From contig CAZSYH010000002.1 in the NCBI GenBank assembly GCA_964610735.1, positions 12,933 to 76,932 of the forward strand: 64,000 bases of DNA, read 5' to 3'. The notes under the pieces are model-generated. The model made no database searches. It had not been told where the DNA came from and saw nothing but the letters and a program-made list of their open reading frames with translations. A program made the translations under genes and the position numbers. Positions 11,222-56,107 of this stretch are shown here, in pieces (position 1 is the stretch's first letter; each line of letters opens with the position of its first letter). The DNA comes from an uncultured Syntrophaceae bacterium. GTDB lineage: Bacteria > Desulfobacterota > Syntrophia > Syntrophales > UBA2210.

Positions 11222-11389
11222 GCTCTGCTCTTGCTTTTTGATGTTTCAGCTTATATGTAAATACAGAATAAAAAACCAGGACACATGAACCCGGGGCTAT
11301 TCTGCTGACACATTGATCTACTTCGCACTTGCCTCGCCGTCAGTCTCTTTGGTGCACCCCAGTTTCAACAAACGGAAAGGAATATTGAG

Positions 11390-12196: not shown

Positions 12197-12430
12197 TGAA
12201 ACGGGGCCCTTCCTTCCTGAACTTTTCCATTGACGCCTGCGTATAAATAATCCATATTGGCACGCTTGAGAACGGCACCAATCATGATGCACCTGTAAAA
12301 CTATGGGAAAAGGGGGCTTCCCCTGTTTGATTTCCAGTCGGGCCCGGAGCTCCTCTGCGATAGACTTTCGGCGTTTCCTGTTTTTCAAGGCATTACCAAA
12401 ACTTTTTTACTGATCCCAACTTGACTAAAA

Positions 12431-37108: not shown

Positions 37109-38439
37109 ACAGAAAGCTGATAGTAATCGGGGGCGGCGCCGGGGGACCTTCTGCAGCCGCGGAGGCAAAGAGGAGAGATCCATCCCTGGATGTAACAATG
37201 TTGGAAAAGGGTGAGTTTGTTTCATATGCCGCCTGACCCATGCCTTATTACATCGGTGATGTAATCAAAGATTCGGGAAACCTTATCGCGAGAACCCCAG
37301 AAAAGTTTGAAGAAACCGGGGTAAGCGTGGAGCTTAACACCTGCGTCGAAGGCATCGAGACCGACAGGGGGGAAGTCCTGCTGGCAAGTGGCAGAAAGCT
37401 GTCATATGATACGCTTGTTATAGGAACAGGTGCCGAAGCAACTCTACCTGACATACCGGGCACGACACGGGACGGGGTATTCACGCTGAAAAATCTGCGG
37501 GACGGCATCAACATCAAGGAATATATAAAGCGTAACAGGTGTCGCAGGGCGGTAATAGTCGGGGCCGGTTTTATCGCCATGGAGATGAGCGAGGCCCTGA
37601 GAACTCTTAGCCTTGAGACCAGCGTCGTATACAGGGGCGAGCTTCCTGTCAAAAAATGGGATCCGGTATTTTCCGGGGTGGTTCTGGAGGAGCTTGTAAA
37701 CAACGGAGTATCCTTTATCGCCCACAACTCTCCTGTTGCTGTTGAGAAGGGCTCAGATGCCCGACTGTGTCTGGTTACCGATAAAGGAAAGATAGAGACC
37801 GACATTATCGTATTCGCCCTCGGTGTGAGACCTGAGACGAAGCTGGCGCGTGAAGCAGGCCTTGAGACGGGAGAATCCGGCGCCATCCAGGTGGATTCTT
37901 CGCAACGCACCTCACGAGAGGAAATATTTGCCGTTGGCGATTGCTGTGAGTCATATCACCGGTTGAGCAAGAAATGGGTGAATATTCCACTGGGAGATAT
38001 AGCGAACAAACAAGGACGGGTAGCCGGCCGTAATATTGCCGGATATCCTATGATATTCCCCGGGATTGTAGGCGCCCAATCCTTTAAGGTGTTTGGCTTG
38101 GAAGTTGCCATGACCGGTCTTGATGAGAAGACGGCGGAAAAGAGCGGATATTCGCCCGCAGGCAGCATAATCTGGGGGAACCCTGTGGCGCGTTCCATGA
38201 GTGGGGGTCAGAGACTGGGGCTCAAACTGATCGCGGACAGGGGTTCGGGAAAATTGCTGGGGGCGCAGGCAGTAGGACAAAGCGGAGCGGTCAGCCGCAT
38301 CAACATTCTGTCCGCGTGTCTGTGGTCCGGCATGGGGCTTGACGAAATAGGCTATATGGATCTCGCCTACAGTCCGCCCTTTGGCGGGGCGTGGGATGTG
38401 ATTCATACCGCGGCCCAGGTCCTGGGGAAAAAGCTGTGA
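37105..38439 (+). CDS. CoA-disulfide reductase / NADH oxidase-family flavoprotein with in-frame TGA (probable selenocysteine) at the redox-active Cys position
   Basis: ATG 37105 (ATGA overlap with the lgt stop) reads MNRKLIVIGGGAGGPSAAAE..LEKGEFVSYAA-TGA(37234-37236)-PMPYYIGDVIKD, in the same frame as ORF 37240..38439. The full length would be 444 aa, typical for the family. A second Rossmann motif (VIVGAGFIAME) and GDC are present. Confidence 0.8.
37247..37265 (+). other. Candidate bacterial SECIS hairpin
   Basis: Perfect 8-bp stem ATTACATC/GATGTAAT with a GGU apical loop, starting 10 nt after the UGA. The loop centre is ~21 nt from the UGA. Confidence 0.55.
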
Positions 38440-38566: not shown

Positions 38567-39964
38567 TTACAATCCGGACTCGCTGGGATTGTAATGTTTT
38601 TTGCTGTAATGCTGTTTCACGGCGTGGAGGAAGCGTACCCCGCGGCCCATCTCTTCAAAAACGGGGATGCCCATATCTTCCAGACCTTTTTTGAATGCGT
38701 GGAAAGGTTCTCCCATCCCCGCCAGCCATGCGATGACTGGTTTGTCAAGTTCTTCCTTAAGCCTGCTCAGGTGGAGAAACACACTGCTGTCACATCTTCC
38801 TGAAAATGGATGTATGATAAGAGAGTCAACTCCCCTGTCGTGCATGACTGCGGCCGCCACCTTTGTGTAGACGGCCTCTATTCCATTTTTTTCGACGGCA
38901 GGCCATATATCAACAGGATTTGAGGGATCCATCCAGGGTGGGAAGACCTCTTTAATGGATTTCAAGGTTTCTTCGGATAATGAAGCCAGAGGGAGATCAT
39001 AATCCTGCAGAAAATCGGCGGTCACGATTCCTCCTCCACCCGAGAAGGTAATAACAGCCGTTCCACCATCACTCTTACGGTATCTGGTTTTGGAAAAACC
39101 CCGGAGAAGATCCATGAGTTCATTAAAGTCATACGCCGGTATTACACCTGATTGCGTGAAGGCGTGTTTCATGATTGTGTAATTACCAGCCAGGCTGGCC
39201 GTGTGACTCACGGCTGCGCGGGCTCCGGAGGGGCTTCTCCCCCCCTTGAGAACGATGACTGGTTTAGTGGTGGATCGGCACAGTTTCATGAAACGCCTGA
39301 TGTCGACGATAGATTCAGTGTACAACCCGATAACCTCGGTGAGGGGATCATCTATCAGATATTCCAGCAAATCGGTTTCATTGACGTCACTTTTATTCCC
39401 GATAGAGCATATCTTGCTAATACCCATCCCCCCCCTCTCGAGTATCATCATGAGAAAAATAGCGGAGAGTAAGCCGCTTTGAACGATCATCGAAACGTTC
39501 CCGGGAACCATCAGGGTCTTCCACGAATCCGTATACATGAAGGAAAACACATGCCTCGAATGACCGTCGAGAAGACCCATGCAGTTGGGTCCCCACAGCC
39601 TGATTTTGTGTTTGCGAGCTATGGCTGTGCATTCTTCCTGGAGTTTTTTTCCTTCTTCACCCACTTCCGCGAATCCGGCCGACTCAATAATGATTCCCCT
39701 GACATTTTTCTTCGCGCACTCTTCTATGACAGGGGGAAGAAAAGTGGCCGGGATGAAGTATATGGCCAGGTCAAAATCACCGGGGATGGATGATATATCG
39801 GGATAGCATTTCATTCCAAGGATTGAATCATGCTTCGGATTTACGGGGTATATCCTGCCTTTGTACCCGCCGGACATGTTGTTCAGGATGTGATATCCGC
39901 CTCTCAAAGGATTGTCCGAAGCACCGATTATTGCCACCCCGTCGGGGTTGAAGAAAAAATTCAT
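38567..39964 (-). CDS. Acyl-CoA synthetase (NDP-forming) alpha-type protein (CoA-binding plus CoA-ligase domains)
   Basis: N-terminus FFNPDGVAIIGASDNPLRGGY..YPVNPK (CoA-binding) and GPNCMG. The middle region has succinyl-CoA-ligase-like flavodoxin domains. No ATP-grasp subunit is adjacent. Confidence 0.8.
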   Translation of the reverse strand: MNFFFNPDGVAIIGASDNPLRGGYHILNNMSGGYKGRIYPVNPKHDSILGMKCYPDISSIPGDFDLAIYFIPATFLPPVIEECAKKNVRGIIIESAGFAEVGEEGKKLQEECTAIARKHKIRLWGPNCMGLLDGHSRHVFSFMYTDSWKTLMVPGNVSMIVQSGLLSAIFLMMILERGGMGISKICSIGNKSDVNETDLLEYLIDDPLTEVIGLYTESIVDIRRFMKLCRSTTKPVIVLKGGRSPSGARAAVSHTASLAGNYTIMKHAFTQSGVIPAYDFNELMDLLRGFSKTRYRKSDGGTAVITFSGGGGIVTADFLQDYDLPLASLSEETLKSIKEVFPPWMDPSNPVDIWPAVEKNGIEAVYTKVAAAVMHDRGVDSLIIHPFSGRCDSSVFLHLSRLKEELDKPVIAWLAGMGEPFHAFKKGLEDMGIPVFEEMGRGVRFLHAVKQHYSKKHYNPSESGL

Positions 39965-40239: not shown

Positions 40240-41265
40240 ATGTTGAAGAGGAAAAGTCTTGTACTGTTTATTGCGCTGATTGTGGCTTTGTCAATGGTCT
40301 TTATCAGCCCGGCGTTTGCGGCGAAAAAGAGTTTCTTCGCGATTGCAACGGGGGGCACGGGGGGCACTTATTATCCCCTGGGGGGGGTTCTGGCGCAGGC
40401 CCTGTCCAACAAAATTCCCAGCGTTATTGTTACCGCTCAGTCGGGTAACGCGTCTGTCGCGAACTGCAACCTCATAAAGAGTCACCAGATCGAATCGGCT
40501 TTCGTGCAGAACAATGTTGCCTACTATGCGTATACCGGGATCCAGCAGTTTGATGGGAACCCCGTTAAAAACCTGAGGGCCATCGCCTCTCTCTACCCCG
40601 AGACAATCCAGATTATTGCCAGGGAGGGAGCCGGGATAAAAGGCGTGAATGACCTGAAGGGAAAGAAGATGATCCCGGGTGACAGGGGAAGCGGGACCGA
40701 AGTGGACTGCCAGGCGGTTCTTTACGGTATCGGCCTTACCTATGATGATTTTGCCAACGTGGACTGGCTCAGCTTTTCCGGCGCCGGCCAGAGGCTGAAA
40801 GACAGGCAGGCCGATGTGGCGTTCATTACAGCGGGATGGCCCACGGCTGCTATTACAGAGCTGGCCACGACATCGGATGTCACACTTGTTCCGCTGGATG
40901 ACGAAACCATAGCAAAGATCATCAAAAAATATCCCTTCTACGCGAAGGTCGTTATCCCCGCGGGCACTTACAGAGGAGTGGATGTGGATACTCCGGCCAT
41001 CACCACGATGGCTCAGTGGGTGGTTGATGCCAAAGTTTCGGAAAAGATGGTGTACGACCTTACAAAGGCGCTGTGGGATAAGGGGGCTTTTGTCCTGCGC
41101 AAAGCGGGAGAGAAGGCCGCCGATGCGCCGAGCGGAGCTGAGATTATGGCGCAGGCCCACGACAAGGGTAAAGATGTTACCCTCGCCACGGCGCTTGACG
41201 GCGTAGCAATCCCCCTTCATCCGGGCGCAGCGAAGTTTTACAGGGAGAAGGGTCTGATAAAATAG
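40240..41265 (+). CDS. TAXI-family TRAP transporter solute-binding protein
   Basis: Signal peptide, then the IATGGTGGTYYPLGG motif and the pattern ...NAS..N...; C-terminal HPGAAKFYRE. Confidence 0.88.
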   Translation: MLKRKSLVLFIALIVALSMVFISPAFAAKKSFFAIATGGTGGTYYPLGGVLAQALSNKIPSVIVTAQSGNASVANCNLIKSHQIESAFVQNNVAYYAYTGIQQFDGNPVKNLRAIASLYPETIQIIAREGAGIKGVNDLKGKKMIPGDRGSGTEVDCQAVLYGIGLTYDDFANVDWLSFSGAGQRLKDRQADVAFITAGWPTAAITELATTSDVTLVPLDDETIAKIIKKYPFYAKVVIPAGTYRGVDVDTPAITTMAQWVVDAKVSEKMVYDLTKALWDKGAFVLRKAGEKAADAPSGAEIMAQAHDKGKDVTLATALDGVAIPLHPGAAKFYREKGLIK

Positions 41266-41290
41266 CAGCGGATTGATCCGTTAAGGAGGT

Positions 41291-41320
41291 GTCCGGGCAC
41301 CGGTTTTCCGGTGCCCGGAC
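41291..41320 (+). promoter_or_regulatory. Strong intercistronic stem-loop between the binding-protein gene and the DUF1850 gene
   Basis: Perfect 13-bp GC-rich stem GTCCGGGCACCGG/CCGGTGCCCGGAC with a TTTT loop. It lies between AAGGAGG (41284-41290) and the ATG at 41324, and only three T residues follow the stem. Confidence 0.7.
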
Positions 41321-41323
41321 TTT

Positions 41324-41824
41324 ATGGATAAGAAAAAAATAATCATCCTCTCTTCTCTTGCCGCCCTCTTTTTCTTTTCTCTTATTCCCTGTCATGTATT
41401 GCGAATAGAGGCGGCAAGGAGAAATCAAACGGTCTTCGTTCAGGCAATCCGGCCGGATTACAGATTTTCAACCAGATATATTCATTCGGTTGAGTTGTGC
41501 CCTGTCGGAGAGTACTTCAAAATTGATAGTAATTTCAGAATCGTTCTTTATGAAACGACATTCTCTTCCTGCAATACCGGACTTCCAACTACTCTTTCCG
41601 GAAATGAAAAGTTCTGTACTAATGGGGATCACATGCGTATCTCCGACATGCACAGGGTATTGCCGCAGCTTGATCTATGGGTCAATAAAAAGTACGATAA
41701 CACCTTGACGCTGTGGGATGGGGAGGTATTGGACCTCCCCTCTCTGGCGGGAGACACCCTCTTGAGGATAACAGTGGAAAAGCTGACTGTTTTCAATCTT
41801 TTGTATCTAAAGATGGAAAGCTGA
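41324..41824 (+). CDS. DUF1850-domain protein (accessory gene of TAXI-TRAP loci)
   Basis: N-terminal TM helix and the YIHSVELCPVGEYF motif. The position between the TAXI receptor and the fused permease is typical. Confidence 0.7.
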   Translation: MDKKKIIILSSLAALFFFSLIPCHVLRIEAARRNQTVFVQAIRPDYRFSTRYIHSVELCPVGEYFKIDSNFRIVLYETTFSSCNTGLPTTLSGNEKFCTNGDHMRISDMHRVLPQLDLWVNKKYDNTLTLWDGEVLDLPSLAGDTLLRITVEKLTVFNLLYLKMES

Positions 41825-41836
41825 GAGGACCTTTAC

Positions 41837-44572
41837 ATGGAACTACAGGAAACAGCAACCATCTCTGAAAACATAGAGGATATCGCCAAATACGATCCGG
41901 AGTTTCGATTCCGCCAGCTTACAGGCATTACACTGAAACTTGCCTTTTTTATGACGCAGGTTCTTTCGATATTTCATATCTATACGGCAGGCTTCGGCGT
42001 TTTTCAGGAGTGGAGGCACAGGGCGTTTCACCTGGCCTTTGTCCTTCCGCTTGTGTTTTTCCTTTATACGATAAGAAAAGACAATACGGACGAGAGAAAA
42101 CATCTTGTCCATGATGTCTTCTATGGCATTATCGGAGCCGCCATGGTCGGCGCCATGTTTCGCGAAATCCTGGAACTTTCAGGATACGCAACACTTATGC
42201 TATCTGCAGCATCATTCCTGTTTATCATCTATTTCAAGCGCAGAGAGTTTCTAACGAACAGGACTTTTATATATTTAGACTTTATTATATTTTCCATAAT
42301 GATAGTGATGCTGGTCTGCGGCGCGCGTCTCGGGTTTCAATATATGCACCTTGGAGAATCATTTGAAAATTCCGGCATATCCCTCTTTTTCTGGAGTGTT
42401 TTCCTGTTCGGTGTATTCTTCAGCATGATATTGCTCTTTGCCGTTCAGTGGGTCAGGGCACTGTTTGCCATGGTAAAGGGTGGACAGTTCACCTATAAAC
42501 AGGATGATATTCCCTACTTTGATGTATTTTTTGCAATTCTCGCGTCTTTTATCTCTGTTTATATATTTCTGGAATTTAACAGTCTGGTTATACGCGCGGG
42601 TATTCCCCTCAAGATGGATGTCGTTGTGGGTGCCTTTGCTTTTTTGCTGGTGCTGGAGGGGGCGCGACGCAGTGTAGGGCCTCCCCTTCCCATTATTGCC
42701 TTCCTTGTTCTGGTAAACTGTTATCTGGGCCCCTATTTTCTTGATATTCCCGGACTCAGTTTTTTCGCGCACAGGGGATATCCCATTGAGCGGATCATTG
42801 AGCACATGTATCTTGGCACGGAAGGTATATATGGCATCCCGCTCGGGGTTGTCGCTACCTTTGTGTTCCATTTTGTGCTGTTCGGAATCTTTATATCCAA
42901 GACAGGCTTGGGGCAGTTCTTTATGGATTGCGCGATGGCCATTGCCGGGTGGTCTTCCGGTGGGCCTGCCAAGGTTGCCGTTATAAGCAGTGGCTTTATG
43001 GGTTCTATAAGCGGGAGTTCCATAGCGAACACCGTCACCACCGGGGCTTTTACGATTCCTCTCATGAAGCGCGTCGGTTACTCTCCACAGTTCGCCGGAG
43101 CTGTGGAGGCGGCTTCGTCTACGGGTGGACAGTTGATGCCGCCTATTATGGGCGCTGCCGCGTTCATCATGGCAGAATTCTTAGGCATACCATATATCAA
43201 GATTGCGGCGTGCGCGGTTGTTCCCGCCATACTTTATTTCTTTGCGGTGGGCACCATGGTGCATCTGGAGGCCAAAAAACAGGGGCTTCTGGGGATCCCT
43301 CGTGAGGCGCTGCCCAACCTGTGGAAGGTTGTAAAGGATGGGTGGCTGCTGCTGACGCCCCTTGTGGTAATTGTGTACCTCCTGATCTCAGGGAGCAGCC
43401 CGTTTCTGGCCGCTTTTTGGGGAATCTTTTTTTCCGTTGCCACAGGCCAGATACACAGGAAGACATATCCTCTGCTGATCACCATCTTTCTGGCAATTCC
43501 AGCTGTCCTGGTCAGGGCAAATCCCCTGGAACAGCTTTCCCTCTTTTCGATTGTATGGTTTGGCCTGCTCGCCGCCGGCTTTGTCTATGCCTTCAAAAAA
43601 ACAGACAGGACTTCCTGGCTTGTCAGCCTGCTGCCTGCCTCTGTCCTTGTGGTGTTGCTTGCCTGGGGACTGGAGCCGTCCCTCTGCTCCTTCTGGGCAA
43701 TGGCAACGGTTATCGCGATAGGGGTCTGTTACAGGGAAAGCAGGATGAGAATACCGGATATAATGGAGACCCTGGAGCTGGGAACAAAAAATGCCCTTGC
43801 CATCGGGGCCGCGTGTGCCTGCATAGGTTTTATTGTGGGGGCGACAACCCTTACCGGCCTGGGGCTCAAGTTTGCGGCCGCGGTTATTGAACTTGCCCAC
43901 GTGATAACGTCTATTGTCATGAACCTTGACATACTTCATCTCCTGAGCTTGAACTCTGTCGCACTGTTCTTCACCCTCGTACTAACTGCCGTGGCTTGTT
44001 TTGTCCTCGGCATGGGTATTCCCACGACGGCCCAGTATATTATAGCGTCCATGATTGCGGCCCCGGCACTCCTGCAGTGGGGAATCCATCCCCTGGTGTC
44101 TCACATGTTTGTGCTGTTTTATGCCGTTCTTGCGGATGTGACCCCCCCCGTCGCACTTGCTGCCTACGCGGCGTCGGGGATTTCCGGCGCCAATCCGTTC
44201 AAAACGGGACTTACCGCTTTCGGTCTGGCTTCCGCGGGGTTTGTCATTCCTTTTGTTATTGTGGCCGCTCCCATAATCCTCTGGCTGCCGCCTCTTCTCG
44301 ACCCTGAAGCTTCATTTGACTACCTCAGATTCGCTCATATATTTATAACCCTGCTGATGGGAGTTGTGGCTCTCGGGACTGCCATTATAGGATATTTCAG
44401 GACCAATTCAACCCTTTTAGAAAGGGCGTTGACAGGCGTTGCGGCCATTTCCCTCCTTTCTCCGGAGGTTTACAGTGATCTGGCAGGAATTGCCATAATG
44501 GCATTTGTGTATATAGTTCAAGGCCAAAGAATCATGATAAAAGAAAAAAAGGAGAAACAAGATGAGCAGTAA
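41837..44572 (+). CDS. TRAP transporter fused 4TM/12TM permease (TAXI type)
   Basis: 911 aa, highly hydrophobic throughout, with TRAP-T DctM-like segments (e.g. GGPAKVAVISSGFMGSISGSSIANTVTTGAFTIPLMK). Confidence 0.88.
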   Translation: MELQETATISENIEDIAKYDPEFRFRQLTGITLKLAFFMTQVLSIFHIYTAGFGVFQEWRHRAFHLAFVLPLVFFLYTIRKDNTDERKHLVHDVFYGIIGAAMVGAMFREILELSGYATLMLSAASFLFIIYFKRREFLTNRTFIYLDFIIFSIMIVMLVCGARLGFQYMHLGESFENSGISLFFWSVFLFGVFFSMILLFAVQWVRALFAMVKGGQFTYKQDDIPYFDVFFAILASFISVYIFLEFNSLVIRAGIPLKMDVVVGAFAFLLVLEGARRSVGPPLPIIAFLVLVNCYLGPYFLDIPGLSFFAHRGYPIERIIEHMYLGTEGIYGIPLGVVATFVFHFVLFGIFISKTGLGQFFMDCAMAIAGWSSGGPAKVAVISSGFMGSISGSSIANTVTTGAFTIPLMKRVGYSPQFAGAVEAASSTGGQLMPPIMGAAAFIMAEFLGIPYIKIAACAVVPAILYFFAVGTMVHLEAKKQGLLGIPREALPNLWKVVKDGWLLLTPLVVIVYLLISGSSPFLAAFWGIFFSVATGQIHRKTYPLLITIFLAIPAVLVRANPLEQLSLFSIVWFGLLAAGFVYAFKKTDRTSWLVSLLPASVLVVLLAWGLEPSLCSFWAMATVIAIGVCYRESRMRIPDIMETLELGTKNALAIGAACACIGFIVGATTLTGLGLKFAAAVIELAHVITSIVMNLDILHLLSLNSVALFFTLVLTAVACFVLGMGIPTTAQYIIASMIAAPALLQWGIHPLVSHMFVLFYAVLADVTPPVALAAYAASGISGANPFKTGLTAFGLASAGFVIPFVIVAAPIILWLPPLLDPEASFDYLRFAHIFITLLMGVVALGTAIIGYFRTNSTLLERALTGVAAISLLSPEVYSDLAGIAIMAFVYIVQGQRIMIKEKKEKQDEQ

Positions 44573-45560
44573 GACAATACGGGTAGTGCAATATGGTCTG
44601 GGGCCTATCGGAAGCGCTACGGCACGTCACATTATAGAGCGGGATGGAGTGGAACTGGTCGGTGGGGTTGATATTGACCCGGCCAAAACAGGCAGGGATG
44701 TCGGAGAAGTAATCGGTCTCGGCAGCCCTGTGGGATTTCCTGTCGTCAACGACCTGTCCCGGGCGCTGGAGAAAACGGAGGCGGATGTGGTGCTTCACAC
44801 CACCGGATCCTTCTTTGACTTCTTTGAGACTCAGATTATGGAAATTCTGGAGGCCGGGCTGGATATTGTTTCAACATCCGAGGAACTCTCCTTTCCCTGG
44901 CTGGCTCACCCGGATGCCGCCGCCAGGATAGACGCCGCCGCCAGGCAGGCAGGCAAAACAGTATTGGGCACTGGCGTAAACCCCGGATTTCTCATGGATG
45001 CACTGCCCCTCAATCTCACGGCTATCTGTCAGCGGGTGGATCGCATTGACGTGACGCGTCGCATGAATGCCTCGTTGCGAAGAGGTCCTTTCCAGGCAAA
45101 GATAGGTTCAGGAATGACGGTGGAAGGGTTTAAGGCGAAGATGGAAACGGGGCGCATGGGACATGTCGGGCTTCAACAATCCATGGGAATGGTTTTTTCC
45201 ACACTGGGCAGAGATCTGGTAAAATATGAATCCAGTGTCGAGCCGGTAGTGGCTGATTCACCGGTCAAGACGGATTACTTTGAGGTACAACCCGGCCAGG
45301 TAAGAGGACTTAAGCAGGTAGCCCGCGGTTATACCGGTGAGTGCGAATTTATGACGCTTACCTTTGTCGCCGCCCTGGATGAAAAAGTAGACGGAGATAC
45401 CATCCTGATTACCGGAAAACCGGATCTGGAGGTCAGGTTAAAAGGCACCAATGGCGACATCGCGACGGTGGCAATTGCGGTCAACGCCGTGCGCCGTGTA
45501 TTTGAGGCGCTGCCCGGTCTGGTCACCATGCGTGACCTGCCCATAGTAACAATCTGGTAG
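44562..45560 (+). CDS. DapB-like NAD(P)-dependent amine dehydrogenase (2,4-diaminopentanoate dehydrogenase family)
   Basis: N-terminal Rossmann IRVVQYGLGPIGS, NPGFLMD, HVGLQQSM, and C-terminal NGDIATVAIAVNAV..LPGLVTMRDLP. Start overlaps the permease stop by 11 nt, and AGGAG lies 9 nt upstream. Confidence 0.65.
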   Translation: MSSKTIRVVQYGLGPIGSATARHIIERDGVELVGGVDIDPAKTGRDVGEVIGLGSPVGFPVVNDLSRALEKTEADVVLHTTGSFFDFFETQIMEILEAGLDIVSTSEELSFPWLAHPDAAARIDAAARQAGKTVLGTGVNPGFLMDALPLNLTAICQRVDRIDVTRRMNASLRRGPFQAKIGSGMTVEGFKAKMETGRMGHVGLQQSMGMVFSTLGRDLVKYESSVEPVVADSPVKTDYFEVQPGQVRGLKQVARGYTGECEFMTLTFVAALDEKVDGDTILITGKPDLEVRLKGTNGDIATVAIAVNAVRRVFEALPGLVTMRDLPIVTIW

Positions 45561-45588
45561 GTATAAAACATCAGGTGAGGGAATTTTT

Positions 45589-47403
45589 ATGAAAAGATTG
45601 ATTGATTTGTCAAAGGAAGAACTTCTCGAAAGGATATGGGAGACGGAGCCCAAACTCAAGGATATTCTTAGCAATGCCAGACATGTGGAAGAAGCACGGT
45701 ATGTTTTTTTTGATTACCTTGATCGTTTCGGAAGAGACCTGTACAACATGAAAGCCGATACACCCTTTGCGGATTTGAATGTTGTAGAGAGGAGAAATGC
45801 CAGGGAATGTATCCGGGTGCTCGCAAATACAATGCGGACAGAAAACGAACATCTGACACAGACTTCGCCGCTGGCACTTTTGTATAATCTTGCAAATGAT
45901 GAGGAGGGAGCCCTTGAGAAGGTAAGCGCGGGTTTTTTGATGGAATACGTTGCCCTGCTGGAGGGTATCAGAGGAAAATATGGAAAACATTCCCAACACC
46001 ACGAGCTTCTGGAGCAAAAAGAGGGAAGAGGCGCCGCTATTGAGCGGTCTTCCCAGTTGGATGATTACGGAGCGATGATAAGAAGATATTTCAAAAGATA
46101 TAAAACAGGGCTGGATCCCAGACTGGTAAAAAAGAGAAAGAAACTGAAAGATAGGATACTGGATTATTTCGGGGCCGGAGAAGAAGACTGGGGGAATTAT
46201 CTCTGGCATATGAAACACATCATCAAAGACATCGAGACACTGTCTGCTCTTGTCAAGCTGGATGATGATGAAATGGAAGGGTTAAGACTGGCGACGGAAA
46301 ATCTTATTCCTTTTGAAATAACGCCTCATTACCTGTCGCTTTTTAATGAAGACGGAATGACTTTACATGATCGCGCCATTCGCGCGCAGGTTATCCAGAG
46401 CCCCCGGTATTGTACCAATGTCCTCGCAAATCAGGGGGAGGGAAGAGACATGGATTTTATGGGGGAGCATGCGACGAGTCCGATAGATGGAGTCACGCGC
46501 AGGTATCCTCAGATTATTATTATGAAACCGTTCAATTCATGCCCGCAGATATGCGTTTATTGCCAGAGAAACTGGGAGATAAAGGACATTGACGACAGCC
46601 CTATGATGTCCAGGGACAAGGTAGAAGAAATGATAAACTGGGCCAGAGAGGATAAAAACCTCTCAGAGATTCTGATAACCGGTGGAGATCCCTTGACACT
46701 CAACAACAAGTACCTTGACTGGATGATCGGAGAAGTCGCGGCAATAGATCATGTAGACAGGATAAGAATCGGAACCAGAACGCTTGTAACCCTGCCCCAG
46801 AGGATAAATGACGGTCTGCTTGAGATCCTTGGGAAATACCACGAGTGGGGGAAAAGAGAGATTACCATTGTTACACATGTCGAGCACCCCACCGAAATAT
46901 GTCCGGAAGTCCTGGATGCCGTGAAAAAGATAAAAAAGCTGGGAATTAATATCTATAACCAGCAGGTTTTCACCTATTACAACAGCAAAAAATTTGAAAC
47001 GGCCTTCCTGCGGAAAACGCTTAAGGTTTGCGGTATCGATCCTTACTATACCTTCAACTGTCAGGGTAAGGGAGAAACCGTGGATTTCAGGGTTCCCATA
47101 TCAAGGATATTGCAGGAAAATAAGGAAGAGGCAAGGCTCATGCCCGGTCTTGTCAGGACGGATGAGCCAGTCTTCAACGTGCCGAGATTGGGGAAATCAC
47201 ACTTGAGGGCGTGGCAGGACCATGAAGTCATCATGATCCTGCCCGATGGCCGGAGGGTATACAGATTCTATTCATGGGAGACAAAACTTACAACAGCCAG
47301 AGACTATCTCTATACGGATGTGTCCGTTTACGATTATTTTAAAAGACTGCAGGAAGATGGTGAGAATGTTAATGATTATCTCTCCATGCTGTATTATTTT
47401 TAG
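45589..47403 (+). CDS. KamA-family radical SAM aminomutase with ~200-aa N-terminal extension
   Basis: KamA core from ~aa 200: WGNYLWHMKH, FEITPHYLSLF, TRRYPQIIIMKP, radical-SAM CPQICVYCQR (C318/C322/C325), ITGGDPL, YYTFNCQG, and a candidate PLP lysine in NVPRLGKS; 604 aa. Confidence 0.8.
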   Translation: MKRLIDLSKEELLERIWETEPKLKDILSNARHVEEARYVFFDYLDRFGRDLYNMKADTPFADLNVVERRNARECIRVLANTMRTENEHLTQTSPLALLYNLANDEEGALEKVSAGFLMEYVALLEGIRGKYGKHSQHHELLEQKEGRGAAIERSSQLDDYGAMIRRYFKRYKTGLDPRLVKKRKKLKDRILDYFGAGEEDWGNYLWHMKHIIKDIETLSALVKLDDDEMEGLRLATENLIPFEITPHYLSLFNEDGMTLHDRAIRAQVIQSPRYCTNVLANQGEGRDMDFMGEHATSPIDGVTRRYPQIIIMKPFNSCPQICVYCQRNWEIKDIDDSPMMSRDKVEEMINWAREDKNLSEILITGGDPLTLNNKYLDWMIGEVAAIDHVDRIRIGTRTLVTLPQRINDGLLEILGKYHEWGKREITIVTHVEHPTEICPEVLDAVKKIKKLGINIYNQQVFTYYNSKKFETAFLRKTLKVCGIDPYYTFNCQGKGETVDFRVPISRILQENKEEARLMPGLVRTDEPVFNVPRLGKSHLRAWQDHEVIMILPDGRRVYRFYSWETKLTTARDYLYTDVSVYDYFKRLQEDGENVNDYLSMLYYF

Positions 47404-48275
47404 ATGTGTTCCCCTCCGGCTTGTGGCGTGGACAACCGGAGATGTTCTTTTCCAAGTTCTTTGTATAGGCTTTCCCCTATCTTCAGACCGAGGGCGATGA
47501 AGTCGGGACCGTACTCCCTGCCGGTGGATGTGCGGAAAGTATCGCTGATCTTTTCCAGAGTTTTTAATCCGGAGGGAAAATGATCTAATAAAATTTCGAT
47601 GGAGATATCCAGGGTGTCTGATATATCCCATATCATTTCCGTGAAATTATCGGGACCCCACCGGAACTTGTCGGCGTCGTACAGGGCATCGGACAGAAGT
47701 TGAGCGTCCGGGTCGGAAAGGGGGGCGCATGGTTGAAAGGCCTCGTGATTTCCTATCGCGGCGACCACAGACACTTGTTCTTTGTCTGTAAGGTCAAAGC
47801 CCCTGAGGATCTTCCTCGCCTCTTCCGCCCCACGCCGGGCGTGATTTTTGTCTGATCGTTTTATATCATGCAGAATGCCGGCTATATGTGCCAGAACAAC
47901 GGCGCGCTTTACGTTGCCCGCTTTTATCGCATCCTGCCCTTCGATGAGCATTATGGCCCCCACGTCTATCGCAACCTTTCGTGCATGAGACAATCCATGG
48001 CCGGAGGAGTCTGCCCTCGCGGTTATTATCTCAATACACGCTGTGACCATCGGATTATTTTCAAGCAGACGGAGAGACTCGCTGATTTCAATCTTTTTTT
48101 CCCGGTAAAAACGAGGAGCGGCAAATGTGACCGCGATTTTTTCAGACAGTATTTTCGCATCTGAAAGCGTTTGGGTGATCATGGGATTTTGTTTTATTCC
48201 CCTGGAAACGATTATGTGTCCATCATTTTTTTGAGTTTCCTGTGAACAACAGCGGAAATACGATGTCACTGACAC
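47400..48275 (-). CDS. HD-domain protein
   Basis: GLSHARKV...AGILHDIKR HD signature. The ORF-track start at 48275 overlaps the upstream gene by 53 nt, so the internal ATG at 48182 (MITQTLSD) is an alternative start. Confidence 0.7.
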   Translation of the reverse strand: MSVTSYFRCCSQETQKNDGHIIVSRGIKQNPMITQTLSDAKILSEKIAVTFAAPRFYREKKIEISESLRLLENNPMVTACIEIITARADSSGHGLSHARKVAIDVGAIMLIEGQDAIKAGNVKRAVVLAHIAGILHDIKRSDKNHARRGAEEARKILRGFDLTDKEQVSVVAAIGNHEAFQPCAPLSDPDAQLLSDALYDADKFRWGPDNFTEMIWDISDTLDISIEILLDHFPSGLKTLEKISDTFRTSTGREYGPDFIALGLKIGESLYKELGKEHLRLSTPQAGGEHI

Positions 48276-48837
48276 AACAGGGTATCAGGACGGCAATAAA
48301 CAGGAACATGAAGACGACAATGTACGACAGCCAGTTTAATGTACCCCCCACGGCCATGATAATATGAAAGATTGAGGCCCAGGTGCTCAGGAGGACGTGT
48401 CCCGCATGGGGAAACTTTGTTGACGGCCGGAAGTAGGCTACGGCTATTCCCAGTATCGCCAGGGGATTTACCAGCCACCACTTTTCGATAAAGCCGATGT
48501 GAAGGCCCCTGTCGGGCATGTTGAGCATAACTTCGCCAAGATAGGGTATCAGGGAATCACTTATAGTGGCAATGCCTATAGAGCCTGCATAACCTATAAC
48601 CAGCAGAATCCAGATATTGCATTTACCTCCGACCTCTCCGCATTTGTGAAGTTTGTACATGGATGTCGTGACCAGGGCGCTCAAAACAACGTGTAGAGGA
48701 TGGAGGACATAGAAAATATTCAGAGCGGTTGTGTGTGGTATATGCTGAAAGAGAACCATAATTACTATACCGGTAGCTGCACCGAGGAGAGTAAAAGGGG
48801 CGTGATTTTTTAATTCTCTTAGTATTTGTACGGTCAT
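48223..48837 (-). CDS. Integral membrane protein with duplicated His-rich TM motif, function unknown
   Basis: About six hydrophobic helices. Repeated motif HPLHVVLSALV (N-half) and HAGHVLLSTWA (C-half). Confidence 0.55.
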   Translation of the reverse strand: MTVQILRELKNHAPFTLLGAATGIVIMVLFQHIPHTTALNIFYVLHPLHVVLSALVTTSMYKLHKCGEVGGKCNIWILLVIGYAGSIGIATISDSLIPYLGEVMLNMPDRGLHIGFIEKWWLVNPLAILGIAVAYFRPSTKFPHAGHVLLSTWASIFHIIMAVGGTLNWLSYIVVFMFLFIAVLIPCCVSDIVFPLLFTGNSKK

Positions 48838-49102: not shown

Positions 49103-49660
49103 TTATCCTGCCGCCTTTGATGAACAATTTTCAGCCATTTTGATGCCAAGGTCGAGGGCATCCTGGTTAATCTGTAAAAAAGCGGAAGGAATCCTGGTCT
49201 CCAATACCTTCATGATAGACTCTGGCCTGACTATTTTTAAAAAGGTAATCAGGGCGCCGAGCATGCATATGTTGAAGACAATTGGCTTCCCGATTTTATC
49301 CATAACCTCTGTGTACATATTAAGTTCTATCTGCTTTGCGTCAACTTTTTCATTCTGTTTGACATAATGTCTGTCGGTCAGGAGAAAACCTCCCGGTCGA
49401 ATAAGCCCGGAGAATTTATCGTATGCTTCCTGAGTAAGACACACTAAAATGTTTGGTTCAATAACCTTGGGAAACAATATATCCGTATCGGAAATGATAA
49501 CATCTGAACGACTTGCGCCACCTCTGGCTTCAGGGCCGTATGACTGGGATTGAACTGCATTCAACCCTTCACAAAGGAGAGCCGCCTCAGCCAGTATTAT
49601 GGCCGCTGTAATCACACCCTGTCCGCCTGAACCGGAGAGGATAATTCTACGTCTTTCCAT
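49103..49660 (-). CDS. 2-oxoacid:ferredoxin oxidoreductase gamma subunit
   Basis: N-terminus IILSGSGGQGVITAA and SYGPEARGG motifs; 185 aa. Confidence 0.88.
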   Translation of the reverse strand: MERRRIILSGSGGQGVITAAIILAEAALLCEGLNAVQSQSYGPEARGGASRSDVIISDTDILFPKVIEPNILVCLTQEAYDKFSGLIRPGGFLLTDRHYVKQNEKVDAKQIELNMYTEVMDKIGKPIVFNICMLGALITFLKIVRPESIMKVLETRIPSAFLQINQDALDLGIKMAENCSSKAAG

Positions 49661-49663
49661 AAT

Positions 49664-50467
49664 TTACCTTCCCTTAGACGCCCTTTCTATGACCTTGTCA
49701 TATTCAGCACAGTATTCTGGCCGTTCTTCCTGGACAAATATACCTCGTTCTATGAGATCGGGATTTTTCTCCTTTTCCTTGCTCCCTATGGGAGTTGTAT
49801 TGGTTTTATAACTATTGAGCATATCCACTGCACTGGGGATCTTGTTTCTTCGGCCAAACTGTATTGGGCACTGAGACAAAACTTCTACAACCGAAAACCC
49901 TTTATGCGTGATGGCCTTCTCCAATATCTTTACCATTGGATTGACATGATAGGTTGTCGTCCTGGCAACAAAGGAGGCCCCAGCGCCGGTTGCGAGCTTA
50001 ACCACATCAAAGGAATGATCTATATTCCCATAGGGCGCGGTCGTTGCAAATTCTCCGTATCCCGTCAAAGGAGAGTATTGACCTCCTGTCATACCATAGA
50101 TGCTGTTGTTCATGATAATGGCAGTTACATCGATATTGCGCCTCGCCGCATGGATAAAATGGTTACCGCCAATAGCACAGGCATCACCGTCCCCCATGGG
50201 GACCAGTACGGTAAGCTCCGACCTGCTCAGTTTGACACCGGTGGCAAAGGCAAGGGCCCGGCCGTGGAGTGTATGCAGGGTATGAAAATCAAGGTAGCCA
50301 CTGATACGGGCAGAACATCCAATACCCGAAACCGCAGCGATATGCTTTTTTTCCAGACCGAGGTTTTCAATCGCACGGATAATGGCAGTCATTACAGTGC
50401 CATGGCCGCAACCTGGGCACCAAATATGAGGGAAAAATCTCTTTCTGATATAGTCTTTAACTGCCAT
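49664..50467 (-). CDS. 2-oxoacid:ferredoxin oxidoreductase beta subunit (TPP-binding)
   Basis: WCPGCGHG, GIGCS, GDGD..IGGNH, and NNSIYGMTGGQ motifs. Confidence 0.9.
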   Translation of the reverse strand: MAVKDYIRKRFFPHIWCPGCGHGTVMTAIIRAIENLGLEKKHIAAVSGIGCSARISGYLDFHTLHTLHGRALAFATGVKLSRSELTVLVPMGDGDACAIGGNHFIHAARRNIDVTAIIMNNSIYGMTGGQYSPLTGYGEFATTAPYGNIDHSFDVVKLATGAGASFVARTTTYHVNPMVKILEKAITHKGFSVVEVLSQCPIQFGRRNKIPSAVDMLNSYKTNTTPIGSKEKEKNPDLIERGIFVQEERPEYCAEYDKVIERASKGR

Positions 50468-50470
50468 TTC

Positions 50471-51619
50471 TTACACCCCCTTTCCCTGGGTGATTCTTAT
50501 GATACTCAAGACATCGGTAGGCGTAATAAATCCACCGTCAATCCTGTTGGCAAGAAAAACTCCGTCAGGATTCTTGACCGCCTTCTTTACCTCACCAAGT
50601 ATCTGGCCCATATTCATTTCTACCACAATTATCTGATTCGCAGAGGCACATCGCTCCCTGACAAGTTTAGCAGGGAAGGGCCAGAGAGTCTGTAGCTCCA
50701 ATAACCCGAGTTTTTCACCCCGCTCTCTCCTGTTTTTTACAATGTGAAGGGCCGTTCTGGCGGCGGATCCATAAGAAATCAGGAGGCATTCCGCATCATC
50801 AACAAAGAACTCCTTTATCCTTGTGATTTCATTTACGTGGGTCTCAATCTTGTCTACCAGATGGTGCATCAATCCATATACAACACCCGGCTTGTTTGAA
50901 GGAAACCCCCACATATCATGCGCCAGCCCTGTGACATTATGCCGGTGATCACCTCCAAAATCAGACATGGGAAGGCGGCCATCCTCCCTTGGCAGATACG
51001 GGTGATAATCAGTTCCTGCTGGCACGGACGTTTTCAGTCTCTCTACCACGTCGATTTCCCCTGCCTTCGGCTCCACAAGCCTTTCCCTTGTATGTCCAAC
51101 AACTTCATCAAGAAGCAAAATAACAGGTGTCCTGAAGGTTTCCGCCAGATTAAAGGCATCAACCGTTATTGCAAAAACATCTTGACTGTTGGATGCGGTT
51201 AAAACGATAATGGCATGGTCTCCATGGGTTCCCCAGCGTGCCTGCATGACATCTCCCTGACTTCCACTCGTAGGAAGACCTGTCGAAGGGCCACCCCTCT
51301 GAACATCAACGATCACACATGGGGTTTCAGTCATTACAGCAAAACCGAGAGCTTCCTGCTTCAAGGAAAAACCCGGGCCCGAGGTTGCGGTCATAACCTT
51401 TTTCCCAGTGAGTGAGGCGCCGACTATGGCACACATGGAGGAAATCTCGTCCTCCATCTGAATAAATTTCCCCCTCTTCTCGGGCAAACGAAGCGAGAGC
51501 AGCTCCGCAATTTCTGTGGAAGGAGTTATCGGGTAACCGGCAAAAAACTCAAGCCCGGCATAAAGAGCCCCCCTTACACAAGCTTCATTACCTTGAACAA
51601 ACACGACATCTTTCTTCAC
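50471..51619 (-). CDS. 2-oxoacid:ferredoxin oxidoreductase alpha subunit
   Basis: QGNEACVRGAL, YPITPSTEI, TATSGPGFSL motifs. GTG start 8 nt after AAGGAGG. Confidence 0.9.
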   Translation of the reverse strand: MKKDVVFVQGNEACVRGALYAGLEFFAGYPITPSTEIAELLSLRLPEKRGKFIQMEDEISSMCAIVGASLTGKKVMTATSGPGFSLKQEALGFAVMTETPCVIVDVQRGGPSTGLPTSGSQGDVMQARWGTHGDHAIIVLTASNSQDVFAITVDAFNLAETFRTPVILLLDEVVGHTRERLVEPKAGEIDVVERLKTSVPAGTDYHPYLPREDGRLPMSDFGGDHRHNVTGLAHDMWGFPSNKPGVVYGLMHHLVDKIETHVNEITRIKEFFVDDAECLLISYGSAARTALHIVKNRRERGEKLGLLELQTLWPFPAKLVRERCASANQIIVVEMNMGQILGEVKKAVKNPDGVFLANRIDGGFITPTDVLSIIRITQGKGV

Positions 51620-53977: not shown

Positions 53978-56107
53978 ATGTCAGAACATCCGGATACAAA
54001 AAAATGGAGAGAACTTGCGGAAAAGAGTTTAAAAGGTAAATCGCTTGAATCCCTGAACTGGATCACCCCGGAGGGAATCCGGATAAAACCCTTGTACACA
54101 GCCGAAGATCTTGAAGGCCTGGAGTTTGTCAACACTCTTCCGGGACTTGCCCCCTATATCAGGGGGCCTCATGCTACCATGTATGTCCAGAGACCGTGGA
54201 CAATCCGCCAGTATGCCGGTTTTTCCACGGCAAAAGAATCGAATAAATTTTACAGAAGCAACCTTGCCGCCGGACAAAGGGGCCTTTCGGTGGCCTTTGA
54301 TCTTGCGACTCACAGGGGCTATGACTCTGATCACCCCAGGGTGGTTGGCGATATCGGAAAGGCTGGCGTCGCGATAGATTCCGTGGAGGACATGAAGGTT
54401 CTTTTCGATCAGATTCCTCTGGACAAGATGTCTGTTTCCATGACCATGAACGGAGCTGTTCTTCCCTGTCTCGCGGGGTATATCGTTGCCGCGGAAGAGC
54501 AGGGGGTTACTCAGGACAAACTTTCGGGGACCATACAGAACGACATCCTCAAAGAGTATCTCACGAGGAATACGTACATATACCCTCCGGGTCCTTCCAT
54601 GAGGATCGTCTCGGATATTATCGGGTACTGCTCGAAGAATATGCCCCGGTACAATACCGTCAGCATCAGCGGATACCACATCATGGAGGCCGGGGCGAGC
54701 TCTGTACTCCAGGCCGCTTTTACCCTGGCTGATGGGGTTCAGTACGTGCATGCCGCCCTTGACGCGGGACTTGACATAGACGCGTTTGCGCCGCGGCTCT
54801 CATTTTTTTTCGGGATCGGGATGAATTTTTTCATGGAAATTGCCATGTTGAGGGCCGCCCGTTTTCTCTGGCATGAGCTAATCAGCAAGTTCAACCCTCA
54901 AAACCCGAAGTCCGCCATACTCAGAACCCACTGTCAGACATCCGGCTGGAGTCTGACGGAGCAGGACCCATATAATAATATCATACGAGTCACCATTGAA
55001 TGTATGGCCGCGGTTCTGGGCGGGACCCAGTCTCTCCATACCAATTCATTCGATGAGGCTGTGGCCACACCTTCGAATTTTTCCGCCAGGCTCGCGAGAA
55101 ACACCCAGATCATTGTTCAGGAAGAATCCCAAATCTGTCACGTTATTGATCCGATGGGCGGTTCCTATTATGTCGAGGTTCTGACCGATGGGATTATCCG
55201 GGAGGCAAGGAAAATTATTAATGAGGTCGAAGATCTGGGCGGCATGGCAAAGGCCATCGAAACCGGAATGCCGAAGATGCGAATAGAGGAATCGGCCGCT
55301 AGAAAGCAGGCCCGAATAGACCAGGGGCTGGATGTGATTTTGGGTGTGAACAAGTATCAGATAGAGGAAGAGCCCCTTGGTGATATTCGTGAAGTATCGG
55401 AGGCTGTTCGGGATGAGCAGGTTGCGAGATTAAAAGAGCTTAAGGCAAAACGAAACCCCGCCGCTGTGCGTAAGTCCCTGGAGGCCTTAACGAACTGTGC
55501 TGAATCGGGGGGGAATCTTCTGGAAGTGGCAATATCCGCCACACGGGCCAGGGCAACGGTTGGAGAAATTTCAAATGCCATAGAGAAAGTCTTTGGACGA
55601 TATACAGCGACAACCCGGTGTATATCCGGAGCCTATGCCTCTGAATACACGGACAGTGAAATATTCGCCGCTGTAAAAAAAAGAACAAGTGATTTTATGG
55701 AGAGGGAAGGCAGACGGCCACGGATGCTTGTTGTCAAGATGGGCCAGGATGGTCATGACCGCGGGAGCAAAGTGATCGCTACGGCCTACGCGGATCTTGG
55801 GTTTGACGTGGATATCGGTCCCATGTTCCAGACTCCCGATGAGGCGGCCAGGATGGCTGTAGAAAACGATGTTCATGTCGTCGGTGTCTCAAGTCTGGCT
55901 GCCGGTCACAAGACCCTTATCCCCCAGCTTTTAGAAAGCCTCAAGGAAGAGGGCGGGAAAGATATCAAGGTAGTTGCCGGCGGGGTAATTCCCCATAGCG
56001 ATTATGATTTCCTCTATGATGCCGGAGTGGCAGCGGTATTTGGTCCTGGGACACCCATTCTTGATTCCGCAAACCGGACTCTCGACATCCTGGAGCAGAA
56101 AACATGA
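53978..56107 (+). CDS. Methylmalonyl-CoA mutase, large subunit with C-terminal B12-binding domain
   Basis: [39 protein letters not shown], and C-terminal [12 protein letters not shown] (DxHxxG B12 motif); 709 aa. Confidence 0.93.

Follow-up and report, generated by a model that had tools for sequence, protein, structure and literature searches.

Gene content and organization of the locus

The contig CAZSYH010000002.1 (assembly GCA_964610735.1) of an uncultured Syntrophaceae bacterium carries, within the stretch of 64,000 nucleotides (nt) analyzed here (positions 12,933 to 76,932, referred to below as the window), a five-gene operon that combines a solute transporter of the TAXI-TRAP type with a native amine dehydrogenase and a long-form member of the KamA family of aminomutases. 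All five open reading frames (ORFs) lie on the forward strand, and each has a strong match in profile searches of Pfam and NCBIfam, for the latter with its curated cutoffs. The genes are as follows (lengths in amino acids, aa; SAM, S-adenosylmethionine; PLP, pyridoxal 5'-phosphate):

40240-41265, + strand: TAXI-family TRAP solute receptor, 341 aa, with a signal peptide (TIGR02122, 329.7 bits, cutoff 84)
41324-41824, + strand: DUF1850 protein, 166 aa (PF08905, E = 2.9e-15)
41837-44572, + strand: fused TRAP permease of the DctQ/DctM type, 911 aa (TIGR02123, 676.8 bits, cutoff 320; DctM, PF06808)
44562-45560, + strand: NAD(P)-dependent native amine dehydrogenase of group G1, with a DapB/Ord-like fold, 332 aa (DAP_DH_C, PF19328, E = 3e-34; DapB_N, PF01113)
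45589-47403, + strand: long-form KamA-family radical-SAM/PLP 2,3-aminomutase, 604 aa (TIGR00238, 316.3 bits, cutoff 199.2)

The intergenic spacing is 58 nt between the receptor and DUF1850 genes, 12 nt between the DUF1850 and permease genes, and 28 nt between the dehydrogenase and aminomutase genes, while the permease and dehydrogenase genes overlap by 11 nt (44562-44572). Shine-Dalgarno-like sequences precede the starts of the dehydrogenase (AAGGAG) and of the aminomutase (GGTGAGG). The operon is real: an earlier note on this DNA, made from the letters alone, had described five co-directional and tightly spaced genes with this overlap and had named their families, and the coordinates proved exact and the assignments are borne out by the profile scores. 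A scan for promoters and terminators was uninformative, with counts no higher than the shuffled expectation and no convincing terminator in the dehydrogenase-aminomutase gap, and no riboswitch or other RNA element was found in the 36-49 kb part of the window. The nearest genome loci belong to metagenome-assembled genomes (MAGs) of Syntrophaceae/Syntrophales, with aminomutases 95% and 93% identical. Gene neighborhoods were surveyed at 80 genome loci for the aminomutase and at 85 loci for the dehydrogenase; individual loci are designated below by L and a number.

The receptor and the permease

The best solved relatives of the receptor are TtGluBP, the glutamate/glutamine-binding protein of Thermus (PDB ID: 1US4 and 1US5, E = 2e-65), and the L-glutamate-specific VcGluP of Vibrio cholerae (PDB ID: 8S4J). 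The residues of VcGluP that contact the ligand are given in the report of its structure, in which the site of TtGluBP is almost identical, the ligand of TtGluBP-type receptors is glutamate or glutamine, and mutation of Q93 lowers the affinity of VcGluP 990-fold (PMC11574862). In the alignment, Y44, Y45, S72, Q90, E121, and G152 of the window receptor correspond to Y45, Y46, S75, Q93, E125, and G156 of VcGluP, and T197 corresponds to T187 of TtGluBP. Since the residues of the glutamate site are kept, the predicted ligand of the receptor is glutamate or an alpha-amino acid very close to it, in agreement with the uptake of an amino acid proposed in the earlier note. A second TAXI receptor, encoded in the related loci L039 and L009, differs in having Met and Ala at the positions of VcGluP Q93 and E125.

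The transporter is of the TAXI type, with a receptor and a single fused membrane protein that score above the cutoffs of TIGR02122 and TIGR02123, respectively. In every related locus examined, a DUF1850 gene sits between those of the receptor and the permease. The permease, at 911 aa, exceeds the second TAXI permease of L009 (663 aa) by about 250 residues; its N-terminal extension of about 180 residues (window positions 41837-42390) has no Pfam match, and a weak match to DUF3394 is located near its C-terminus (44300-44572). The glutamate-specific TAXI-TRAP systems (TtGluBP, PDB ID: 1US5; VcGluP-VcGluQM, PDB ID: 8S4J) have in common with the window system the receptor fold, nearly all contact residues, and a fused membrane component, whereas the 911-aa permease with its extra N-terminal region and the DUF1850 gene set the window system apart. 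The literature consulted describes no glutamate-specific TAXI system that is coupled to either a dehydrogenase or an aminomutase.

The aminomutase

Among the equivalog models, the aminomutase scores best with glutamate 2,3-aminomutase (TIGR04368, 238 bits, cutoff 650), followed by lysine 2,3-aminomutase (TIGR03820, 197.7 bits, cutoff 525.4), arginine 2,3-aminomutase (154 bits, cutoff 600), and EpmB (126.8 bits, cutoff 369.3), and it reaches none of these cutoffs. The protein thus lies outside every characterized clade of the KamA family, so that the tight clustering with EpmB or a similar clade that would have spoken against the earlier note is not found. The EpmB role, i.e., beta-lysylation of elongation factor P (EF-P), was rejected on this score.

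The sole solved relative is lysine 2,3-aminomutase (LAM; PDB ID: 2A5H), which matches residues 196-508 in sequence (E = 1e-37) and the AlphaFold2 model (pLDDT 84.7) in a Foldseek comparison (E = 3e-20, TM score normalized to the target 0.69-0.71), so that the core has the KamA fold. In the model, the N-terminal residues (about 190) form an all-helical domain, for which no Pfam match was obtained even at E = 1 and no solved relative stood out, 2A5H matching the core only. An exhaustive search with this domain returned 119 representative clusters, most of which consist of fragments or of long-form KamA proteins; the few longer fusions (with TetR or DnaJ/peptidase) look like artefacts of gene calling and give no functional clue. 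The LAM_C domain is absent according to the Pfam search. The motif C318-P-Q-I-C322-V-Y-C325, corresponding to the CxxxCxxC motif of the [4Fe-4S]/SAM site, is invariant in all 68 long-form members of the family alignment, which also included a canonical KamA from a lysine-fermentation cluster. Another invariant residue, K536 within the segment PRLGK, is the putative PLP lysine; HMMER and MAFFT align this segment poorly. We tentatively place K536 opposite K337 of 2A5H, from an ungapped comparison with the C. subterminale sequence.

Glutamate 2,3-aminomutases were reportedly defined by Ruzicka and Frey in 2007, for the enzyme of Clostridioides difficile, by the presence of Lys and Asn at the positions of LAM Asp293 and Asp330. 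In the Asp293 column of the long-form family, 54 of the 56 members that do not belong to the clade of the window enzyme have Lys, the remaining pair (L013/L014) has Met, and 12 of 12 clade members have Gln (Q492); K494 is invariant throughout. The Asp330 region reads F529-N530, and the Asn, which stands beside the D330 column, occurs in 64 of 68 members. Both lysine-binding aspartates are therefore missing from the window aminomutase, which has Q492 and F529/N530 in their place. Mutation of the residue equivalent to Asp330 turns lysine 2,3-aminomutases into alanine 2,3-aminomutases (PMC9850924). When the two positions were probed with the hidden Markov models (HMMs), substitution in canonical KamA raised the score on the glutamate model by 2.6 bits (D293K), 2.7 bits (D330N), and 5.3 bits (both), and changed that on the lysine model by -3.4 bits (D293K) and -2.7 bits (D330N). 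In the window aminomutase, Q492K gained 1.6 bits on the glutamate model and Q492D 3.0 bits on the lysine model. The prevalence of Lys and Asn together with these probes indicates that the long-form family is glutamate-aminomutase-like at its specificity positions, and that the window enzyme is a derived member and an exception within it rather than a lysine enzyme.

The clade of the window enzyme is fixed differently from the rest of the family at 14 positions, including P270Q, F431I, T438C, T491C, and K492Q, and the last is accompanied by D/E495G, E508L, and R511N. In the neighbor-joining tree, the Gln clade is monophyletic and has the Met pair (L013/L014) as its sister, both nested inside the Lys-type Syntrophales; the substitutions of the clade are thus derived states, and they coincide with the move to a new gene context.

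The family of about 600 residues is very large, with members in Syntrophales, Methanoperedens, ANME-2 and other Methanosarcinales, Methanocella, DPANN archaea, Ignavibacteria, Omnitrophota, Elusimicrobia, and others. The long forms retain 45-60% identity across bacteria and archaea and are annotated merely as 'KamA family' or 'lysine 2,3-aminomutase'. Methanocaldococcus MJ0634, a KamA-family protein of about 620 aa, was not among the best 120 homolog matches, and no mention of it was found in the literature. With glutamate 2,3-aminomutase (Eam; TIGR04368) the window enzyme shares the KamA superfamily, the CxxxCxxC motif, and, putatively, the PLP lysine, and most long-form members match its Lys/Asn signature; the window enzyme differs in the extra helical N-terminal domain, in the lack of LAM_C, and in Gln492 instead of Lys.

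The dehydrogenase

The dehydrogenase scores 274.5 bits with NF040740, the model of the true 2,4-diaminopentanoate dehydrogenase (Ord), below the cutoff of 400. Its relatives in the PDB are 7XDU and 6G1H (AmDH4; E of about 1e-56), with an identity to AmDH4/7XDU of about 37%, as estimated by eye from HMMER alignments. The substrate pocket was compared at 21 positions, P1-P21, which are listed in AmDH4 numbering in Supplementary Data 5 of PMC11164908 and which were transferred by pairwise HMMER alignments, not by structural superposition, to the window enzyme and checked against 13 orthologs. The residues from P1 to P21 are given below, together with a published example of the G1 pattern and the G2/Ord pattern (both PMC11164908):

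Window dehydrogenase: S83 S106 E107 G138 V139 N140 F143 L144 R166 N169 A170 R174 F177 I181 H201 V202 G203 F268 A270 G298 T302
G1 example: S C E G I N F L R Q N R F I - V G F A G T
G2/Ord: S A E G I N F I R N D F V Q H I G H Q G T

The residues E107 (P3), R166 (P9), R174 (P12), H201 (P15), F177, I181, F268, and A270 match those of G1 members such as A0A1G3B4D8. The listed pocket positions are unchanged across the 13 aligned orthologs, and 11 of the 21 are strictly invariant. Four arginines (R166, R167, R173, and R174) are located within the pocket loop. Ord (AmDH4, PDB ID: 6G1H and 6G1M, group G2) has the same fold, the catalytic Glu (E102, equivalent to E107), the Arg at P9, the Asn at P6/P10, and the His at P15; in Ord, however, P12 is Phe rather than Arg, P18 is His rather than Phe, P19 is Gln rather than Ala, and P14 is Gln rather than Ile. 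On its pocket residues, the enzyme is a native amine dehydrogenase of the G1 type and not an Ord. The earlier note had likened it to the native amine dehydrogenases and to 2,4-diaminopentanoate dehydrogenase, and the second of these likenesses is the one that did not hold. A true Ord acting in ornithine fermentation was rejected on the pocket residues R174, I181, F268, and A270 and on the NF040740 score; none of the ornithine-fermentation genes oraSE and ortAB was seen in the window.

Group G1 comprises 1,427 modelled members, whose natural function was left unassigned by the authors of its description and for which gene context gave them no clue (PMC11164908). In their reading, a negatively charged group is bound by the Arg conserved at P12. 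After docking, the compounds tested were 2-amino-4-oxopentanoate, 2-(3-oxobutyl)malonate, diaminopimelate, L-beta-lysine, 2,6-diamino-5-hydroxyhexanoate, glutamine, (2-aminoethyl)glycine, and piperidine dicarboxylate; no natural substrate emerged from these tests, and beta-glutamate is absent from the list (PMC11164908).

Gene neighborhoods of the aminomutase and the dehydrogenase

The loci L009 and L039 have, on one strand, the gene order permease-dehydrogenase-TAXI2-DUF1850-permease2-aminotransferase (NF005685 family)-BKACE-aminomutase, with the dehydrogenase 6 kb upstream of the aminomutase. The same aminotransferase-BKACE pair adjoins Lys-type aminomutases in L019 and L021. At the site that reads 'GAE' (Glu14) in Kce (PDB ID: 2Y7D) and in the Kce-like proteins of L050 and L014, the BKACEs of the L009 type read 'TGSR' (Arg). 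Glu14 of Kce presumably helps to hold the amino group of the substrate, a role judged in part from an internal comparison. If this role holds, the Arg of the L009-type BKACEs would suit an acidic 3-oxo acid.

In archaea, the long aminomutase has other neighbors. The Methanoperedens loci L043, L045, and L052 (6677-11812) have the order mscS-ablA (790 bits)-ablB (344 bits)-long aminomutase, and in other archaeal loci the gene is flanked by TrkH (L041, L044, and L046) or by a CPA2 antiporter (L034 and L038). These neighborhoods suggest an osmoadaptation setting, in which the long form would make a second beta-amino-acid osmolyte. In L050 (754-14897), from a MAG of the DPANN lineage Woesearchaeota, genes for a 4HBT hot-dog-fold protein, kce, kdd, a canonical kamA of 393 aa with LAM_C, a MutS-like protein, and kamDE are found; the 4HBT protein may be Kal, with which the lysine-fermentation set is apparently complete. 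This set is followed by the long KamA, an ornithine aminotransferase (534 bits, cutoff 378), and a glutamate-semialdehyde dehydrogenase (673 bits, cutoff 648), of which the last two together yield glutamate. Lys-type genes are located in glycine-cleavage operons in L017, L018, L019, L023, L026, L029, L030, L032, L071, L072, L075, and L080 (at about 5000-14000 in each); we see no metabolic reason to connect a glutamate-type aminomutase with glycine cleavage or lipoylation.

Orthologs of the dehydrogenase with 60-92% identity are plentiful, many of them on contigs of Anaerolineae/Chloroflexi. Their neighbors include alanine racemase, an Amidohydro_3 protein, beta-lactamase-family proteins, and ABC transporters for peptides or branched-chain amino acids. 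The pair of a G1 dehydrogenase and a HemL-like aminotransferase, sometimes with alanine racemase, may be a better clue to the natural substrate of G1.

Proposed pathway and alternative interpretations

The receptor, the dehydrogenase, and the aminomutase all point to a glutamate-like substrate rather than to lysine. The interpretation that we tentatively favor, at somewhat less than an even chance, is that of a lineage-specific Syntrophaceae operon for the uptake of a glutamate-family amino acid and its breakdown through the beta isomer. In this pathway, the TAXI-TRAP transporter would import the substrate, for which L-glutamate or a very close analog (such as glutamine or beta-glutamate) is the likeliest candidate, and the long KamA-type enzyme would shift the amino group from C2 to C3 by means of PLP and a 5'-deoxyadenosyl radical derived from SAM at the [4Fe-4S] cluster. 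The G1 dehydrogenase, with the catalytic Glu107 and the arginines R166, R167, R173, and R174, would then oxidize the 3-amine with NAD(P)+ to a 3-oxo acid and ammonia, the product being 3-oxoglutarate if the substrate is glutamate. Decarboxylation of the 3-oxo acid would give acetoacetate, and the resulting acyl-CoAs would finally yield ATP through the neighboring NDP-forming acyl-CoA synthetase. We infer the identity of the substrate, the direction of flux, and the sequential action of the two enzymes, the last because the receptor, the ancestry of the aminomutase, and the dehydrogenase pocket converge on a glutamate-like acidic substrate, to which the genes of the sister loci and the tight spacing add. 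Lysine fermentation (KamA/AblA, KamDE, Kdd, and Kce) follows the same logic, i.e., an aminomutase, an NAD(P) dehydrogenase, a 3-oxo acid, and a BKACE; the window operon has a DapB-like rather than a Kdd-family dehydrogenase and a glutamate-type receptor, with different enzyme families at each step and apparently another substrate. The pathway is plausible and testable, but not established. Its outline (uptake, 2,3-shift, and oxidative deamination to a 3-oxo acid) was put forward in the earlier note, and the families and the glutamate-type signals speak for it, whereas the linkage on which it also drew is narrow.

Several observations weigh against the pathway. The linkage of the genes, whose conservation in related genomes the earlier note made a test of its reading, is largely not conserved: the transporter and dehydrogenase genes adjoin an aminomutase gene only in L001-L011 (lying 6 kb away in L009, as in L039), i.e., in one shallow clade with aminomutases at least 77% identical, so its conservation carries little independent weight. 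In the dehydrogenase survey, the only recurrences of the order transporter-dehydrogenase-aminomutase are on four metagenome contigs, all belonging to this clade (aminomutase 77-86% identical). No dehydrogenase gene lies within 10 kb of the aminomutase in any of the 60 or so more distant aminomutase loci, and none of the approximately 70 dehydrogenase-ortholog loci outside the clade has an aminomutase gene within 10 kb. In the close relative L089 (2787-5109; dehydrogenase 81% identical), the permease and dehydrogenase genes are followed after 540 nt by homologs of the two genes that lie downstream of the operon in the window, and no aminomutase gene is found; therefore, close relatives differ in whether they have the aminomutase at exactly this site. 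The more distant L108 (5652-11002; dehydrogenase 71%) has receptor-DUF1850-permease-dehydrogenase and no aminomutase, and the two loci together show that the transporter-dehydrogenase unit exists without an adjacent aminomutase. The juxtaposition of transporter, dehydrogenase, and aminomutase is recent and lineage-restricted. Dehydrogenase orthologs of 75-80% identity, with the same pocket positions, are located on Chloroflexi-type contigs without a KamA-family gene within 10 kb, and the gene found most often beside the dehydrogenase encodes a HemL-like class-III aminotransferase (467 aa), which adjoins it in 24 of the loci L081-L165 (e.g., L084, 8428-12185). Most Syntrophales homologs of the aminomutase belong to operons of the type gcvT-gcvH-gcvPA-gcvPB-aminomutase-lipA-(methyltransferase)-lpd, with gaps of a few nt, which the proposed pathway does not explain. 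The locus contains no enzyme for the 3-oxo acid product, and a BKACE is absent from the 64-kb window in a tblastn search. Finally, the Lys of the glutamate signature is lost (Q492), so glutamate specificity cannot be assumed.

Since the linkage is patchy, an arrangement of two independent modules is nearly as likely as the pathway, although doubtful in itself. The transporter and the G1 dehydrogenase would form a self-contained unit for an acidic amine, the substrate that the Chloroflexi orthologs would share and handle together with a HemL-like aminotransferase. The aminomutase would have landed downstream and would work alone, e.g., to make a beta-amino acid as a compatible solute, as its relatives in archaea seem to do. 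This would fit the units without an aminomutase in L089 and L108, the long aminomutases that stand alone in many contexts, and the pocket positions that are constant across phyla in 13 orthologs with no KamA gene near them; besides, an overlap couples the permease and the dehydrogenase, whereas the gap between dehydrogenase and aminomutase varies (28 nt in the window, about 180 nt in L002, and about 300 nt in L011). What such independence leaves unaccounted for is the convergence of receptor, aminomutase ancestry, and dehydrogenase pocket on a glutamate-like substrate, and the presence in L009 of genes of beta-amino-acid catabolism exactly between the dehydrogenase and the aminomutase. The spacing of 28 nt, the Shine-Dalgarno sequence, and the lack of a convincing terminator suggest co-transcription, and the clade-specific substitutions at the specificity positions coincide with the new context.

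The operon might also serve the salvage of beta-glutamate, with a receptor that imports this compound, an aminomutase that runs in reverse to L-glutamate, and the dehydrogenase as a parallel deaminating branch. The aminomutase reactions of the KamA family are reversible, and the archaeal homologs of the long aminomutase lie in osmolyte neighborhoods (ablAB, MscS, TrkH, and CPA2). Moreover, beta-glutamate is an osmolyte of methanogens, which could be partners of syntrophs, and its catabolism is unassigned in that KEGG has a single reaction for it (PMC12502400). Salvage is nevertheless quite unlikely: the release of beta-glutamate by partner organisms is only presumed, and the receptor keeps Q90 and E121, which hold the alpha-amino group of L-glutamate and so favor an alpha-amino acid as the ligand. 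Slightly less probable again is a switch of the Gln492 variant to a neutral or amide amino acid, e.g., from glutamine to beta-glutamine, which the dehydrogenase would then deaminate. Such a switch would be consistent with K492Q, fixed in 12 of 12 clade members where 54 of 56 others have Lys, with the accompanying D/E495G, E508L, and R511N, and with the acceptance of glutamine by TtGluBP-type receptors (PMC11574862), but the four pocket arginines suit a dicarboxylate better than an amide, the invariant K494 could still provide the positive charge, and no downstream chemistry for a 3-oxo-amide is evident.

Ranked last, and very improbable, is a variant of lysine (or ornithine) fermentation, in which lysine would be converted to beta-lysine and the diamino acid dehydrogenated. 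Lysine 2,3-aminomutase is the best-known role in the KamA family, and the long aminomutase of L050 adjoins kamDE, kdd, and kce. That cluster, however, already has its canonical KamA with LAM_C, and the Methanoperedens loci have a true AblA. A lysine/beta-lysine pathway was rejected because both lysine-binding aspartates are missing (the lysine model gives 198 bits against a cutoff of 525), because the canonical KamA or AblA stands beside the long form (L050 and L052), and because kamDE and kce are lacking in the window. The earlier note had likewise seen none of the lysine-fermentation partners in the locus, and with queries from L050 and L009 tblastn found no kamD, kamE, or BKACE/kce in the window, kdd and kal not having been searched for. 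In addition, the receptor is of the glutamate type, and G1 dehydrogenases tried with L-beta-lysine gave no hit (PMC11164908, supplement).

If the pathway of uptake and breakdown through the beta isomer is real, it would represent a fermentation of glutamate in syntrophic bacteria that requires neither vitamin B12 nor 2-hydroxyglutaryl-CoA dehydratase. A broader proposal, which is unlikely as a whole, is that methanogen-related archaea and many anaerobic bacteria have their glutamate 2,3-aminomutase in the long KamA branch and that G1 dehydrogenases are beta-glutamate (3-aminoglutarate) dehydrogenases; with BKACE or decarboxylation, the two would provide a route, independent of B12, that leads from glutamate by way of beta-glutamate and 3-oxoglutarate to acetoacetate or acetyl-CoA. 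If both assignments are true, a catabolic fate would be described for the first time for beta-glutamate, which is an osmolyte of methanogens and is raised in the gut in Parkinson's disease (PMC12502400). The operon makes this fate, as well as the natural function of the G1 amine dehydrogenases, testable. Membership in the KamA superfamily, in group G1 of the native amine dehydrogenases, and in the TAXI-TRAP transporters was found, and membership in a characterized equivalog family was not. Independently of the pathway, a large and highly conserved long-form KamA family is delineated, with a glutamate-type signature and archaeal neighbors from osmolyte clusters.

Flanking genes and other features of the window

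The operon is flanked upstream by a divergent gene and downstream by two convergent genes, and more remote genes of acyl-CoA metabolism lie about 36 kb away:

38567-39964, - strand: alpha subunit of an NDP-forming acyl-CoA synthetase (Succ_CoA_lig and CoA_binding domains; TIGR02717, 396 bits, below the cutoff of 567)
47400-48837, - strand: two convergent genes, 291 and 204 aa, without a confident family (the first with a weak match to a DVU_1551-type NTP-transferase)
2077-3264, + strand: thiolase (family match; about 36 kb from the operon)
3833-4981, + strand: acyl-CoA dehydrogenase (family match; about 36 kb from the operon)

The thiolase, the acyl-CoA dehydrogenase, and the synthetase, which the earlier note had named as enzymes that might process a 3-oxo acid, are all real, but its statement that none of them is adjacent fails for the synthetase. 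A homolog of the synthetase is kept at the same position in L001, L002, L005, L006, L010, and L086, and NDP-forming acyl-CoA synthetase genes are also found near long aminomutases of several lineages (L024, L027, L028, L031, L038, and L047). The divergent synthetase is thus a possible downstream partner, converting acyl-CoA to acid and ATP, although its membership in the operon is only conjectural. Both convergent genes are kept across the whole clade, including the relative without an aminomutase (L089).

The stretch 2077-4981 (+ strand) that holds the thiolase and the acyl-CoA dehydrogenase also encodes a helix-turn-helix-cupin regulator. The regions 49103-51619 (- strand) and 53978-57087 (+ strand) encode gamma, beta, and alpha subunits of a 2-oxoacid:ferredoxin oxidoreductase and a fused methylmalonyl-CoA mutase with MeaB, none of which adjoins the operon. 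The ORF of a CoA-disulfide reductase (37240-38439) aligns to the family models only from about model position 44, and its start may be wrong or its N-terminus truncated. Between 22230 and 32448, gidB, parA, parB, dnaA, dnaN, gyrB, and gyrA stand in a row. At about 22-24 kb the sign of the GC skew switches, and the GC content is 37-39% over 24-28 kb compared with about 49% elsewhere. The window spans the region of the chromosomal replication origin.

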